12,969 nucleotides of DNA from a virus (Duplodnaviria; Heunggongvirae; Uroviricota; Caudoviricetes), in IMG/VR virus record IMGVR_UViG_2602041671_000010; one strand, written 5' to 3'. Both the position numbers and the translations under genes were made by a program. Positions 5,944 to 12,021 of this stretch are shown here, in pieces (the first letter of the stretch is position 1; each line of letters opens with the position of its first letter). The notes beneath the pieces are model-generated. The model made no database searches and was not told the DNA's origin. It was given only the letters and a program-made list of their open reading frames with translations.

Positions 5944-7100
5944 TTAATCGTCGTCCTGTGGCAGTTCCAGAATCTTGATCGCGTTCGAATCCACCACGCC
6001 ACCGCCTAAATATTTCTGCGTGAAAATTTTGATGAAGCCCGGCTCTGTGAGGTTGTCCGGTCTGGTGCGAACACCTGTTTCGTGATCAACAATGTAGTAA
6101 CCGCGCTTGAAGTCACCCAGGGCAATAACGTTATCAGGCATAAACTCCAGATATTCGACCGGAAGGCCCAGCAACGTATCAGGATCACCCGCCTGTAAAC
6201 GGTCGCGCCAGATGTAATCACCGTTCGCGTTCTTCACCTTCTGAAGTTTTGCCGCCGTCGTGGAGTTAACCACCCAGACCGCGTTTTTGCGGTATTTTTT
6301 ACGTAATGCAAATTTCAGGTCGATCAGCGGGTCCGCAGATGTCCACGCCAGAGATTCGGAAGGTTTAATTACCTGCAACGTACCAAAATCACGCTCTTTG
6401 TCGTTCTTCTCTGCACGGGGTACGGATAAAAAGCCTTTTGCTTTTTTGTCACCGTCGCCCACAACCAGATCGCTTTCTTCGGTTTCCGTGAAGGTGTCGC
6501 CAATCTCACCCGTCAGCCATGAAAGGATGTCCACATCGGAAAAATCCACGATTTCCTGTGTGGTGCGCGGGTACGCATAGACCGGATACAGCTTAATGCT
6601 CACCTCGTTAATCTGCGGGGTGCTGGTCTGTTCGCGTGCCTTACCCTCTTCACCGTGGTTAACGGTCGCACCGCCAGCGGAAACAAGCTGCTTAAACTCG
6701 TTGCTGCTGATTTTTTCACGGTACAGATGCGGCGCATGGTGGACTCATCCACCAGCATTCGCATGATTTCGGTGTTCAGTTCGGGGATAACGGTATAACC
6801 ACCATCAGCGGGAACGCCTGTACTTAATGCGCGGGTTTCACCTGTCAGAATGTAGCTGCGTAGTTCTGCGGGGTCAGTGGTCTGGCTGCTTTTACCTGGC
6901 TTGCTGCGCTCTTCGTCTGCAATGGCTTCAAGGCGGGAAATGTCTTTATCGAGGGATTCAGCTTTAGCGCGTAATTCGTCAAATTTTGCGCCCTCAGCAT
7001 CGTTAAGACTGCGGTTTTCTTTTTCCGCGTTCTCCAGCATGTCGCGCATCTGATTTTTAATGGCGGTTTTCTGCTGGCGTAATTCGATTATTCTCGGCAT
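5944..7100 (-). CDS. major capsid protein, HK97 fold, interrupted by a 1-nt frameshift in an A6 run (6711-6716); N-terminal coiled-coil delta domain
   Basis: N part (track ORF 6600..7145 from ATG 7100): coiled-coil then GETRALSTGVPADGGYTVIPELNTEIMRMLVDESTMRRICTV. C part (track ORF 5944..6603): my own translation of the same frame upstream of 6603 gives ISSNEFKQLVSAGGATVNHGEEG, continuing into LYPVYAYP...VVGDGDKKAKGFL, matching HK97-family conserved blocks. The two parts join if the run were A7. Confidence 0.8.
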
Positions 7101-7140
7101 AAAAAAAAGTCCTGGGGTTAAGTAAGGAACTCCAGGACGC
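7101..7140 (-). terminator. intrinsic terminator abutting the major capsid ATG
   Basis: Minus-strand RNA GCGUCCUGGAG-loop-CCCCAGGAC followed by U8, then AUG directly. Confidence 0.65.
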
Positions 7141-7321
7141 GGCAAAAACTCAACCGTTTTTCATAAGGGAATCAGCAATCGCACCGATCGTTTTCCCGCC
7201 TGGTAATGAATATTGGCGAGCACATTAACAGGCGGGAAAGTGGCCCCAGCGTCCTGGCACCACGGGCGAGAATAATCATGATTCAGTTCGGGTAAAATAT
7301 GCCGATCCGCTCAGTGAACAA
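7141..7321 (-). promoter_or_regulatory. candidate late promoter (-35 TTGTTC, 16-nt spacer, -10 TATTTT at 7294-7321) and roughly 185-nt structured leader
   Basis: Promoter-like hexamers read on the minus strand; leader contains an 11-bp stem (UUUCCCGCCUG/CAGGCGGGAAA) and a CCAGGACGC element complementary to the terminator 5' arm. Confidence 0.4.
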
Positions 7322-7758: not shown

Positions 7759-8007
7759 CTACTCAGCTAATTTGCTCAGCCCCATGTCTGCATAAGTGCG
7801 ATTTACTGCATTTCTCAGGTCTGCGTAGTTCTCCGTTGGCGGCTCCGGTGGCCTCTGTGCCTTCCTGGAACATTCCAGCCGTCGCATCGTAACCTGATGC
7901 CGTTCCTTGTCTGTCTCCACCAGTTGCATGACTTCACCCCATCGCGCCGACGCCCTCCGGTAAAAGCCTTTTGCCTCGAGTTCCTCCGCTATGCGGTCAT
8001 GTACCAT
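7759..8007 (-). CDS. hypothetical protein (82 aa from ATG 8007; track ORF extends to 8127)
   Basis: ATG 8007 has a GAGGGGG SD at good spacing and avoids overlap with ssb; upstream starts overlap ssb; followed by an intrinsic terminator. Confidence 0.5.
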   Translation of the reverse strand: MVHDRIAEELEAKGFYRRASARWGEVMQLVETDKERHQVTMRRLECSRKAQRPPEPPTENYADLRNAVNRTYADMGLSKLAE

Positions 8008-8017
8008 CGTCACCCCC

Positions 8018-8428
8018 TCAGAACGGAATACCGTCACCGTAAGGGTCATCGCCTCCCGCTGGTGGCTGATTACCCTGTGTGCCTGTGGTTTTGCGTCTGT
8101 TCCCGCCTGGACGTGCCGCGCGGGCACTGATTACGCTGTCTGCAATAACCTGATACCCCTGCCGTGTTTCCCCGTTCTGTCCGGTCCACTGGCTGATCTG
8201 CATGTTACCCGCCACGGTCAGGAGTTCACCTTTGCGGTGCCTTGCCAGTGCTTCGGCCTGTCTGCCAAATGCCAGGACGGATAACCACATCGTCACCGTT
8301 CCGTCATCTGCCTGGCTGCACGGAAGGGGGACCGCCATACTCGCCATCGTCATTTGTGTACCCTTGCTGGTGGTCTTTAACTGCGGGTCAGCCACCAGCC
8401 GCCCGTAAGCTGCAATTTGTGCTGTCAT
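8018..8428 (-). CDS. ssb: single-stranded DNA-binding protein (136 aa)
   Basis: OB-fold-like N-terminal region, Gly/Pro/Gln-rich linker and acidic C-terminal tail ending DDPYGDGIPF (compare the DDDIPF tail of bacterial SSB); GAGGTGG SD 4 nt upstream of ATG. Confidence 0.8.
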   Translation of the reverse strand: MTAQIAAYGRLVADPQLKTTSKGTQMTMASMAVPLPCSQADDGTVTMWLSVLAFGRQAEALARHRKGELLTVAGNMQISQWTGQNGETRQGYQVIADSVISARAARPGGNRRKTTGTQGNQPPAGGDDPYGDGIPF

Positions 8429-9000: not shown

Positions 9001-9203
9001 TCCTCACTCATGCTCACTTTTACACCTCACTTTTTAAAGCGTCTCGCTTCGTCTCAGTTGATATTTTTTGATGCTTTATGTGCGTGTTTCATAAGGATTT
9101 TTTTACTCCTCACTTTTGAGCATGTATACAGGTGAGAAAGTGAGTAATCGTGTTAATATTTTGTAAAAACCTCACCATTACTCACTTTTGCTACTCACTT
9201 TTT
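9001..9203. repeat. iteron array, putative replication origin
   Basis: Five direct copies of CTCACTTTT (9013, 9026, 9109, 9181, 9194), two extra CTCAC cores (9003, 9171), an inverted pair GTGAGAAAGTGAG (9132-9144) and an AT-rich stretch (9055-9105), immediately 3' of the replication gene stop. Confidence 0.6.
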
Positions 9204-10599
9204 ACAGTGGTCCTACATCATCACCATCAATGTAAATCACGGCGTCTTTTTCCAGTTTGGCTAACCATCGCCGCATATTTTTCACGTCATACCCAAGCCG
9301 TTTCATGTCATCACGTAACAGCGGGATCGTGCACTTGTCGCCGTTCTGTGTGCGTGAACGGATGCACCCCCATAGTGCGGTATGGTTTTCCGTCTTGTTG
9401 CCTGCCTCCTCGATGCGCTCCAGTTCAACGGGAGGGCGCGGCTTATCCACCACCACCAGCGACGTGATTAACTCCCCGTCAGCGTCGGTAAACAGCTCCA
9501 CCACGCGTAAGTCATATGCGGCTTCTTTGAGTTCCTCCGCGTCCTTCATTTTGGTGCATGAGATAACCAGCGCTTCGCTTCCTGCGTCCTCCCTGCGTAT
9601 CCGGTATTCAGCATCCAGCGAAGCACGAAATGCACTGGAACCGCGCGCGCCTTTCGTCTCATCCTTGCCGGAATGGTGAACCACCAGCACCGTGGCCCCT
9701 GTGCGCCGTTTAAGCTCGTCACACCCACGGATAAACGCCCCCATATCACGGGAATCATTTTCATCATTGCCACCAAAGCAACGCGCCAGAGTATCAAGAA
9801 TAATCATGCGTACAGGTTTACCCGTTTCCCGCTCCACCTGACGGGCAGCGATAACCAGTTCATCAACATCAAGCGGGACAGCCGGAAAAACTGGACGGTT
9901 TACCAGATACAGATTTTTCACCTGCTCACCGTGCACAACCTCCCAGGCTTTTACACGACGCGGAACGCCGATACCGCCTTCACCAACCACATAGAGAACA
10001 GCGCCATGCGCCACCCTGCGGCCTCCCCACTGGCGGCCCGTGGAAACGTGACACGCCCACGAACCCGCAAGGAATGATTTATAGGAACCGCTTGCCCCGT
10101 ATATGCTGCATAGCGACGATGCCGGAATAATCCCCTTTACCACGTAATCTAATTGCGTGTCGTATCCGGCAGATCCAACGCTCATCGGTAGCGTGGTTTT
10201 TCGCTGGTGGTGTTCTTCCCCTGGCTTTTTCCCCCGCTCCCGTTCCAGATATTCGCGCCAGTTCTCCCGCTTCTGGCTGTGTATCCCTTCGGGGTAATAA
10301 TTCGCATCAGTTACGCCCGCCGCCGCCAGCTTGTGCGCAATGGCATTAATATTTGATGGCCTGATGTGGCCTGCCTTGTACAGCCGGACACAATAGCGCC
10401 CCTCGTCGATGATTCTCAGGTCTGCCAGTTCATCCAGTTGATCATCAGCCAGCACAATGGGAGGCACATTATCGCCAGCCAGTCGCCCGTCCTGTTCCTG
10501 CCACTGTTTCGCATGTGCCCACGCATCACTACCCGCAAAAATGATGACTTCGGTCATCTTGTCGTAAGGCTGTTTTTTTAAGTTCGGTGCGCTTTTCAT
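9202..10599 (-). CDS. replication protein: RecA-like P-loop ATPase (AAA_25/RepA-like), putative primase/helicase (465 aa)
   Basis: Deviant Walker A GASGSYKS, Walker B-like RMIILDT, HHSGK motif typical of RepA/DnaB-like ATPases; ATGA overlap with the upstream gene; iteron array immediately after its stop. Confidence 0.75.
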   Translation of the reverse strand: MKSAPNLKKQPYDKMTEVIIFAGSDAWAHAKQWQEQDGRLAGDNVPPIVLADDQLDELADLRIIDEGRYCVRLYKAGHIRPSNINAIAHKLAAAGVTDANYYPEGIHSQKRENWREYLERERGKKPGEEHHQRKTTLPMSVGSAGYDTQLDYVVKGIIPASSLCSIYGASGSYKSFLAGSWACHVSTGRQWGGRRVAHGAVLYVVGEGGIGVPRRVKAWEVVHGEQVKNLYLVNRPVFPAVPLDVDELVIAARQVERETGKPVRMIILDTLARCFGGNDENDSRDMGAFIRGCDELKRRTGATVLVVHHSGKDETKGARGSSAFRASLDAEYRIRREDAGSEALVISCTKMKDAEELKEAAYDLRVVELFTDADGELITSLVVVDKPRPPVELERIEEAGNKTENHTALWGCIRSRTQNGDKCTIPLLRDDMKRLGYDVKNMRRWLAKLEKDAVIYIDGDDVGPL

Positions 10600-10895
10600 T
10601 TCTTGCCCCTGAATCCGTTAATCATGTTTTTCATCTTCTGAATATTGGCGCGTGCTTTCTCCCTGCAGGTGGGCACGTTATGCGGCGCGGTCTGTACCAG
10701 AGAAAAATCACGCCGGAACTGATAAACAGGCATCACGCAATCATATTCGTAGCCTTCACGACGGTAGGTGATGCGCCGTTCTGCCACGCCTTTAATCGTT
10801 ACCGTACCGCCGTAGTTATCACGGAAAATATCGCCGGGGCGGATTTCAGGCCGAGAGAAGTCACTGGCAGTAAAGCCAGAATTTTTCTTTTTCAT
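10596..10895 (-). CDS. small conserved hypothetical protein (99 aa), possibly DUF4222-like
   Basis: ORF translationally coupled to the replication gene (ATGA overlap at 10596-10599); DUF4222 assignment is from memory of P4-like replication modules and is unverified. Confidence 0.45.
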   Translation of the reverse strand: MKKKNSGFTASDFSRPEIRPGDIFRDNYGGTVTIKGVAERRITYRREGYEYDCVMPVYQFRRDFSLVQTAPHNVPTCREKARANIQKMKNMINGFRGKK

Positions 10896-11086
10896 GGTTT
10901 TTATTTTCCTGTCAGTGATTCAAGTTTTATTCCGGCACGAATACAGGCCTCAGAAAAAAAGCCAGAGAACCAACAACCTCATTATTTCTAAGGCGGCATT
11001 GTGATTTCACTTTCCCTTTATCGAGAAATATCAAAACGCGTCCCGTATAATCTGACGGCACATTAAGAACTACAGGTAAGTGCGCT

Positions 11087-11281
11087 TCATAATTGTGCAT
11101 GGTGCGCCCCCTGACGAATACGGGCGGCGAACACAGCAACACAACCGTACGGGCAACGGTTACGCGCTTCGCGTTCCGTCCAGGCGGTTACGTGGATGAT
11201 TTGATGGTCTGACGCGCCAAAGGCAATAAAGCGCCAGATAAAGGCTGTTTGAGAATGTACGAGGGCAGGGGTAGTAGCCAT
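11087..11281 (-). CDS. Icd-like small protein (64 aa), paralog 2
   Basis: ATG 11281 with strong SD GAGGAGG 8 nt upstream; motifs TAFIWRF, TEREAR, VFAARI resemble what I recall of Icd-like host cell division inhibitor proteins. Confidence 0.5.
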   Translation of the reverse strand: MATTPALVHSQTAFIWRFIAFGASDHQIIHVTAWTEREARNRCPYGCVAVFAARIRQGAHHAQL

Positions 11282-11650
11282 GTTGGCAGCCTCCTCAGTG
11301 TGGTTAAGATAACCGCCACGCAAAAGGCTAATTTCGCTGGTGGCGGACTGTACAGGGTTAGCCTTACCGGACACTGAAGAAACCGGCGCGGATTGCTCCG
11401 CCCCCGTACAGCCCACCATTGATAAGGTGTGACTATGCGGCACAAAAAAACACGCGGGGCGCGTGCTGTGCGCTTCAGTTGTTTTCAGGAGGCTAATCCC
11501 GACACCCGTTTTATGAGGTGCGCGGGAATCATAGCTATTTTCGACACTGGCGATCAACTGGTTTTTTTCTCCGATATTCAGGGCCAGAAAACGCCACACA
11601 AAGGCAGTTTGTGTGTGTACAAGGTGTGGTATATGATTTACAGCAACCAT
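11282..11650 (-). CDS. Icd-like paralog 1; ATG 11650; no in-frame stop before paralog 2, so nominal product is the 187-aa read-through
   Basis: ATG 11650 with AGGAG SD 5 nt upstream; N-terminus LVHTQTAFVWRFLA parallels paralog 2; an intrinsic terminator-like hairpin (11441-11465) lies inside the reading frame. Confidence 0.4.
11441..11465 (-). terminator. terminator-like hairpin between the two Icd-like paralogs (CACGCG-CCC-CGCGUG plus U7)
   Basis: Minus-strand reading CACGCGCCCCGCGTGTTTTTTT; 6-bp stem with short loop followed by a T-run. Confidence 0.45.
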
Positions 11651-11740
11651 AACGGCTCCTAGTTTACGTTGTTGGTTAGAAGCCCCGTTACTGCTCCTAC
11701 AGTGCGGGGTTTCGTCGTTTCAACACCTTGCCTAAATAAG

Positions 11741-11792
11741 GTGTTGAACACCAATTTAAATCGAGGTGTTAAACACGTCAAGTGTTGAACAC
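11741..11792. promoter_or_regulatory. three inverted-repeat operator sites GTGTT-N-AACAC in the divergent control region, overlapping a candidate promoter for the RHH gene
   Basis: GTGTTGAACAC at 11741-11751 and 11782-11792, GTGTTAAACAC at 11766-11776; -35 TTGAAC (11785-11790) and -10 CATACT (11807-11812) at 16-nt spacing. Confidence 0.55.
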
Positions 11793-11841
11793 TTATTTTT
11801 TTCCTGCATACTGCATTTGTTTTTTATGAGGGGTGCTCAAC

Positions 11842-12021
11842 ATGGCGACAAAAGCAGTAAACGCAAAATCACAAACAGTTGCGGCAAGGGTTCCACATGA
11901 AGTTATGAACAATGTTGAGGCGGTAAAAATGCCCGGCGAAAGTACAGGGCAGTTTGTTACAGCTGCATTAAAGCGGGAAGTTGAATACCGCCAGCGTCGC
12001 AAGGCCAAAGAATCAGAATAA
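11842..12021 (+). CDS. Arc/Mnt-like ribbon-helix-helix DNA-binding protein (59 aa)
   Basis: ATG 11842 with GAGGGG SD 8 nt upstream; N-terminal beta-strand-like TVAARVPHEV followed by two short helices; upstream inverted-repeat operators. Confidence 0.6.
   Translation: MATKAVNAKSQTVAARVPHEVMNNVEAVKMPGESTGQFVTAALKREVEYRQRRKAKESE

Follow-up and report, generated by a model that had tools for sequence, protein, structure and literature searches.

The locus at positions 11087 to 11650 on the (-) strand of the window, i.e. the whole 12,969-nt stretch of viral DNA that was analysed, is very likely, as judged from sequence comparison, an RNA immunity cassette of the P4 type and the P1 immI type, carried by a capsid-forming PICI-like satellite and laid out as an eta/kil-like nested frame. 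As an antisense-RNA immunity switch it appears to be real but ordinary: the system is already known and well described, can be identified by curated models of Rfam and NCBIfam, and has previously been reported in Gram-negative PICIs, and the locus introduces no new kind of phage or satellite regulation. The initial annotation had described tandem Icd-like paralogs fused in frame with a terminator between them, an observation that was partly confirmed and an interpretation that was partly supported. The value of the present reading is largely one of annotation, in that a 187-aa 'Ash/Icd fusion' or 'ash family pseudogene' next to an Icd-like gene can be read as a P4/P1-type RNA immunity switch heading the replication operon of the satellite, and recognising the switch explains the embedded terminator and hairpins.

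Open frames, RNA genes and target boxes

The long open frame (11087..11650, -), identified from the ORF list and profile matches as the counterpart of P4 eta, has 187 codons and spans an inner promoter, two RNA genes and an icd/kil-like gene. It starts at ATG 11650, 5 nt after the Shine-Dalgarno sequence AGGAG (SD1, 11660-11656, -), and continues without a stop past a second, in-frame ATG at 11281, which lies 8 nt after GGAGG (SD2, 11294-11290, -); the strong ribosome-binding site at each start and the absence of a stop codon between them were both as first described. The ORF region agrees at every base with the finished E. coli 94-3024 genome, and the four homopolymer indels that distinguish the window from that genome all lie outside the long ORF, so that an assembly error does not account for the in-frame reading.

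Nested in frame within the long ORF is the icd/kil-like gene (64 aa, 11087..11281, -), for which the proposed Icd-like identity of the downstream unit was upheld: the last 64 aa alone match NCBIfam NF033153 with 62.4 bits against a cut-off of 25, across profile positions 1-48 of 48, and the same profile on the whole ORF scores 65.8 bits and covers aa 137-180 only. Variable sites in this gene number 8/10/25 of 62 by codon position, a third-position excess, and PGAP labels it in E. coli 94-3024 as 'host cell division inhibitor Icd-like protein'. The property expected of an Icd-like protein is a block to host cell division, seen as filamentation, or killing when it is expressed. The same strand continues (9202..11100, from ORFs and profiles) with a small ORF at 11100-10927, a DUF4222 gene at 10895-10596 and a RepA/AAA_25 helicase gene at 10599-9202, and their close spacing and overlaps suggest a single operon with the cassette.

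Upstream of the icd-like gene, two Rfam families were detected above their gathering scores, each matched over its full length. The first is an IsrK / P4 SeqA-like leader RNA (RF01394, 11445..11521, -; 61.8 bits, gathering 50), which holds the boxes a1 (11496-11490) and b1 (11479-11473) and ends in an intrinsic terminator with its stem at 11467-11449 and a U-run at 11450-11444 (U7). Scan and fold thus recovered, at 11467-11444 (-), the terminator-like hairpin noted earlier inside the frame. The IsrK fold has by itself a weak z-score of -1.4, and assignment to the family draws on the gathering score, the promoter directly 5' of the match and the intrinsic terminator at its 3' end. The second is a C4 / P4 CI-type antisense RNA (RF01695, 11336..11423, -; 75.4 bits, gathering 45), matched in full length over model positions 1-87 of 87. 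Its parts are hairpin 1 (11401-11388), which is the GGATTGCTCC hairpin that had also been seen within the frame, the b' loop (11382-11371) and the a' junction (11365-11358).

The C4 fold is exactly the Rfam consensus, with a minimum free energy of -47.1 kcal/mol and a z-score of -5.5. In ten gap-free copies, P4 among them, to which pair counting was confined, all 270 of 270 pair cells (27 pairs) are standard, and 11 of the 27 pairs are altered on both sides, a level of compensatory change matched by 0 of 500 shuffles; in slid-partner controls pairing falls to 34-51% of cells. A mixed alignment of first- and second-cassette C4 copies was not structure-consistent and was dropped.

For comparison across relatives, 94 loci were gathered with the Icd-like protein as the sole query (a 7-sequence alignment) and reduced at 93% identity to 37 clusters, 13 of which have isrK and C4 upstream of icd. 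The downstream target region of the window (11290..11331, -), assigned by complementarity and co-variation, comprises box a2 (11331-11324) and box b2 (11301-11290), the latter overlapping SD2 of the icd-like gene; b' is complementary to b2 over 12 nt including the icd SD, and a' to a2 over 8 nt. RNAduplex on long segments discriminated poorly, and matrices of contiguous complementarity were used instead. By this measure a' and b' are complementary over 7-12 nt to a1/b1 and a2/b2 of their own locus in every one of the 13 loci, and complementarity to loci of other specificity is mostly 4-6 nt, with a maximum of 8. The recognition elements vary, with five a' types and six b' types among the 13 loci, and all six boxes co-vary among the related islands. 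Immunity specificity should be predictable from the a'/b' boxes, and E. coli islands carry several types of these. Together, the two RNAs above gathering and the co-varying boxes are consistent with the second option of the initial annotation, that structures between the copies would regulate the output of the second gene.

The 54-nt spacer between C4 and icd (11282-11335) also folds on its own, with a2 paired to the icd SD region (-19 kcal/mol, z=-2.8), and in this model the spacer hairpin would hide the icd SD in cis, besides the antisense pairing.

A consensus scan placed the inner promoter, the analogue of P4 PLE, at 11528..11557 (-), with a -35 box TTGATC (11557-11552), an 18-nt spacer and a -10 box TATGAT (11533-11528). 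The isrK match begins 7 nt downstream of the end of the -10 box, and its first base is the predicted transcription start at ~11521. Every one of the 12 class-A clusters (L004 excluded) retains an intact -10 box, and 11 retain the -35 box, which reads TTGCTC in L033. The same scan yielded a candidate outer sigma70-type promoter at 11753..11781 (-), composed of TTGACG (11781-11776), a 17-nt spacer and TAAATT (11758-11753) and set among GTGTTNAACAC palindromes located by a repeat finder at 11741-11751, 11766-11776 and 11782-11792. The palindromes resemble operators of a small repressor, and the site at 11781-11753 is a putative regulated outer promoter.

Several further features were observed around this region. 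Partial GTGTTNAACAC copies occur at 11719-11729 and 11833-11842, extending the repeat region to 11719-11842, and the palindromes also flank the start of a divergent 62-aa YlcI/YnfO-like gene (11833-12021, +). The segment from SD1 to the ATG, TAGGAGCCGTTATGG (11661-11647, -), recurs 38 nt upstream as TAGGAGCAGTAACGG (11699-11685), which lies in the loop of a CCCCG/CGGGG hairpin and has ACG in place of ATG. A third C4 target was sought at SD1: upstream complementarity to a' came to just 5 nt, the best upstream match to b' was 8 nt at 11726-11719, ~60 nt upstream of SD1, and the duplex energy of C4 with the ORF-start region was not better than that of shuffles.

Translation of the long frame

Between the isrK start and the icd ATG, the variable sites of 12 related loci are distributed 44/41/47 by codon position, i.e. 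with no periodicity, and compensatory stem changes rewrite the encoded peptide completely. Both observations favour the strongest of the alternatives, which holds that the 64-aa Icd/Kil-like gene alone is translated, that G+C-rich RNAs of fixed length rarely hold stop codons, and that the 'Ash family protein' is an artefact. The lack of stops over the RNAs in frame +1 as well, seen in 4 of the 12 class-A clusters (L004 excluded), the 1-nt deletion that breaks the long frame in L004, and the PGAP call of the Ash part as a pseudogene point the same way. This alternative is nonetheless considered somewhat unlikely, given that 12 of the 13 clusters have no stop in the icd frame across the two RNAs and none of the 13 has frame +2 open, that upstream segments of three or more kinds, each with an SD and an ATG, continue in frame into the cassette, and that an indel between isrK and C4 is 3 nt long and leaves the frame intact. 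Further, SD1 and ATG 11650 were inherited from a bona fide icd start and are followed by no stop, meaning that transcripts from the outer promoter would be translated through, and translation of P4 Eta is reported in the account given in PMC10111431. The fixed lengths of C4 (88 nt) and of the spacer (54 nt) imply that the frame is kept by descent, so that openness is weak evidence. The reading preferred here is that the long frame is translatable and probably kept open, with its middle part constrained as RNA.

A second alternative is that the 187-aa product is a functional protein, either a Bro-network or Ash-type regulator or a long isoform of Icd, in which the RNAs are merely embedded. The Pfam family PF10554 (Phage_ASH) matches aa 40-133 with 44.3 bits, above its gathering score of 26, and Phage_ASH is treated as a Bro-network domain in PMC10111431. 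Predicted proteins of 166-205 aa with the same Ash and Icd layout are moreover common, and indeed the usual form, among database homologues, which goes some way towards the single protein of 180-190 aa that the initial annotation had said would count against two separate genes if it were the norm. However, the stretch matched by Phage_ASH (nt 11533-11252) is the one occupied by the -10 box, isrK, C4, a2/b2 and the first 10 icd codons, and protein-type evolution of the Ash segment was not found in the 12 loci, where it lacks the third-position excess that icd has in the same alignment. The peptide also alters radically wherever RNA specificity or stems alter, leaving a functional 187-aa protein very improbable. 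PF10554 may largely be a translation of the RNA cassette, and its matches are to be treated with caution as protein evidence.

The absence of codon periodicity in the middle of the frame suggests that translation, if any, is probably important as a process rather than for the protein it makes. Whether that process is a bypass like that of P4 Eta is, by analogy, about evenly balanced. For the window element, the start of transcription, use of the terminator, processing of C4 and repression are likewise predictions drawn from the better-known systems. By analogy with P1 and P4, the inner promoter of a resident element would yield short leader transcripts. C4 would be processed from these, RNase P/PNPase being the enzymes associated with this step in the C4 family, and would pair with a1/b1 and a2/b2, repressing downstream expression by a block to translation of the Icd-like gene and by premature termination, with the consequence that the downstream DUF4222-RepA replication genes would stay silent. 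When the outer, operator-flanked promoter fires, ribosomes that start from ATG 11650 might translate the whole cassette, their passage keeping the RNA unfolded and the targets occupied and so allowing read-through, as reported for P4 Eta in the summary cited below; the amino-acid sequence of the middle part would then not itself be selected. These latter steps have roughly an even chance of being correct.

In L021, L023, L024, L033, L045 and other loci, the icd frame was also observed to be open for 200-500 codons upstream of icd, through the operator region (upstream of 1100). These frames were considered as long Bro-type proteins and rejected, since their translations are of low complexity and RHH/YlcI-type genes lie on the opposite strand. 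In those + strand genes variable sites are concentrated at third codon positions (26/17/38 and 5/4/31 for positions 1/2/3), which identifies the upstream frames as shadow ORFs, often in the icd frame, and PGAP annotates the + strand.

Origin of the upstream unit and tandem cassettes

The long frame begins with what is left of an Icd-like 5' end (11567..11650, -; codons 1-28, MVAVNHIPHLVHTQTAFVWRFLAL...), recognised by BLASTP against the downstream copy and forming a direct repeat of the 5' end of the real icd-like gene. In a single BLASTP comparison, 18 of 42 N-terminal residues of the two units are identical (E=3e-9). The likeness ends after ~40 residues, such that some 28-40 N-terminal residues of the first copy remain Icd-like, and ORF residues 44-123 are, by Rfam scan, the translated promoter and two RNA genes. 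No match to NF033153 was found at E<=1 in the first 123 aa, i.e. in the first unit (11650-11282). The claim of two homologous small genes consequently holds for the N-termini and fails for the remainder, since NF033153 matches aa 137-180 only, and the Icd-like character ascribed to the upstream unit is that of a remnant rather than a gene.

The origin of the remnant is indicated by L068 and L094, which have a single intact 65-aa Icd-like gene started by the same SD and ATG as SD1 and ATG 11650. Their upstream region and first 28 codons are 91% identical to window positions 11709-11567, and the rest of their icd gene matches window positions 11264-11124 at 82%, giving one hybrid icd. From this comparison the window amounts to icd codons 1-28, followed by the cassette and a complete icd, and the cassette is bracketed by direct repeats of the icd 5' end, with no lost stop or frameshift of the kind first suggested for the upstream copy. 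The least probable of the alternatives, namely two complete tandem Icd-like paralogs joined by an accidental 187-aa fusion with a terminator between them, draws on the similar N-termini, the strong SD at both starts and the tandem full-length Icd-like genes that related islands do have, but is scarcely tenable given that the 80 codons beyond the shared N-terminus are promoter and Rfam RNAs, that the first 123 aa are without an NF033153 match, that L068 and L094 show a cassette between repeats, and that the same frame is open in P4 and most relatives.

Tandem arrangements of a different kind were found in L020, L021 and L024 (about 1258-2143), which contain two successive cassettes, isrK-C4-icd and then a1b1-C4-icd. 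The second Icd-like paralogue is ~45% identical to the first, the two C4 RNAs of these islands differ in sequence type, and in L024 a c4-a1b1 match precedes the second C4. Icd-like genes separated by C4 RNAs thus appear to be a trait of the family.

A possible, though tentative, joint explanation for these observations has three parts, which taken together are less probable than not: a portable, repeat-bounded module, a ribosome-driven bypass of immunity, and a Pfam family that is a shadow of an RNA. In the first part, homologous recombination between the icd 5'-end repeats would insert or delete the cassette (promoter, IsrK, C4 and targets), with L068/L094-type loci being cassette-less recombinants. 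In the second, the operator-controlled outer promoter in cf-PICIs would use translation from the remnant icd start to bypass RNA immunity, and in the third, PF10554 'Ash' would be largely the protein-space shadow of the RNA cassette.

Comparison with known systems and the host island

The closest counterpart is P4, in which the C4 and isrK profiles detect CI and seqA, and the same profiles match GN-PICIs (PMC10111431). Applied here, they gave P4 matches of 60.8 bits for isrK (8692-8615, a site that also gives a sub-threshold c4-a1b1 match) and 74.9 bits for C4 (8507-8420). A 214-codon frame of P4 (8168..8812) spans isrK, C4 and the Icd-like C-terminus, and the old 'cI ORF' of P4 matches Phage_ASH and then NF033153, arranged as in the window. 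The two therefore share the order isrK, C4 and Icd-like C-terminus within a long frame that includes promoter and RNAs, and in both the cassette heads the replication operon. According to PMC10111431, which cites Forti 1999 for these points, P4 eta contains a constitutive promoter, Kil is a truncated Eta, and translation of Eta from an upstream promoter prevents termination; the nested eta/kil pair is attributed there to Forti et al. 1999. The window has the corresponding elements, i.e. a promoter, a seqA-like leader, a CI-like RNA and an in-frame, separately initiated Icd/Kil-like gene.

There are also differences from P4. The long frame of the window has its own SD and ATG, derived from the icd 5' end, whereas P4 eta is reported to be coupled to an upstream vis/alpA-like gene. 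Coupling to such an upstream gene was not found in the window, where a stop lies 23 codons before the ATG and the neighbour (11833-12021) is divergent and YlcI/YnfO-like. The recognition boxes differ in sequence from those of P4, implying a different immunity specificity, the isrK-C4 spacer is 21 nt in the window and 107 nt in P4, and the replication gene is a RepA/AAA_25 helicase in the window and an alpha primase in P4.

The likeness to P1/P7 immI lies in a C4 RNA whose a'/b' match a1/b1 upstream and a2/b2 downstream, with b2 over the icd ribosome-binding site, and in a small Icd protein as the first gene. The boxes a1b1, a'b' and a2b2 of the window thus follow both the P1 C4 logic and the seqA/seqB/seqC logic of P4 CI. 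In a P1-like phage, C4, a 54-nt spacer and icd succeed one another with ~70% DNA identity across isrK, C4 and the icd 5' end, and the C4-to-ATG spacing of 54 nt is common to the window, P4 and this phage; no match of the isrK model reaches gathering in the P1-like locus. The Kil/Icd protein is 31% identical to P1-like Icd over 72 aligned columns. In contrast to P1/P7 immI, the window has no antirepressor (ant) after icd, and small ORFs and replication genes follow instead.

A third relative is the isrK-orf45-anrP region of Gifsy-1 in Salmonella (PMC4825925), which has a promoter-proximal 77-nt IsrK with an intrinsic terminator, a processed C4-like RNA (STnc1160) and a small ORF conserved in nucleotide sequence and not in peptide. 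The same source describes IsrK as a structural homologue of SeqA, summarises termination mediated by CI, seqA and seqC, and gives Hfq binding and trans-activation of the downstream ORF as experimental properties of IsrK. In Gifsy-1, by contrast with the window, IsrK activates orf45/anrP translation in trans and an antiterminator regulator is encoded downstream.

Over its whole length the window shares 99.5% identity with an island that lies between roxA and phoQ in E. coli 94-3024. The island contains int, an HTH/AlpA-type gene, divergent small RHH/YlcI-type genes, the cassette, DUF4222, the RepA/AAA_25 helicase, SSB and PerC, along with a PGAP-annotated packaging set of capsid, protease, portal, connectors, HNH, TerS and TerL, and no tail genes. 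Such gene content defines capsid-forming PICIs (bioRxiv 10.1101/2022.09.08.507074), a paper that does not describe an RNA immunity cassette, and the host element, known here from its genes, looks like a capsid-forming PICI of the EcCIEDL933 family.

Relative to the E. coli 94-3024 island, the window has four single-base deletions, at 6716, 8529, 10960 and 11802, all in homopolymers, which suggests sequencing errors or recent pseudogenisation. Through the deletion at 6716 the major capsid gene is broken into two ORFs, 6600-7145 and 5944-6603, and the deletion at 10960 alters the C-terminus of the small ORF after icd. A PerC-family activator gene (7759-8127, -; Pfam PF06069, 120.7 bits) lies between the replication and capsid modules.
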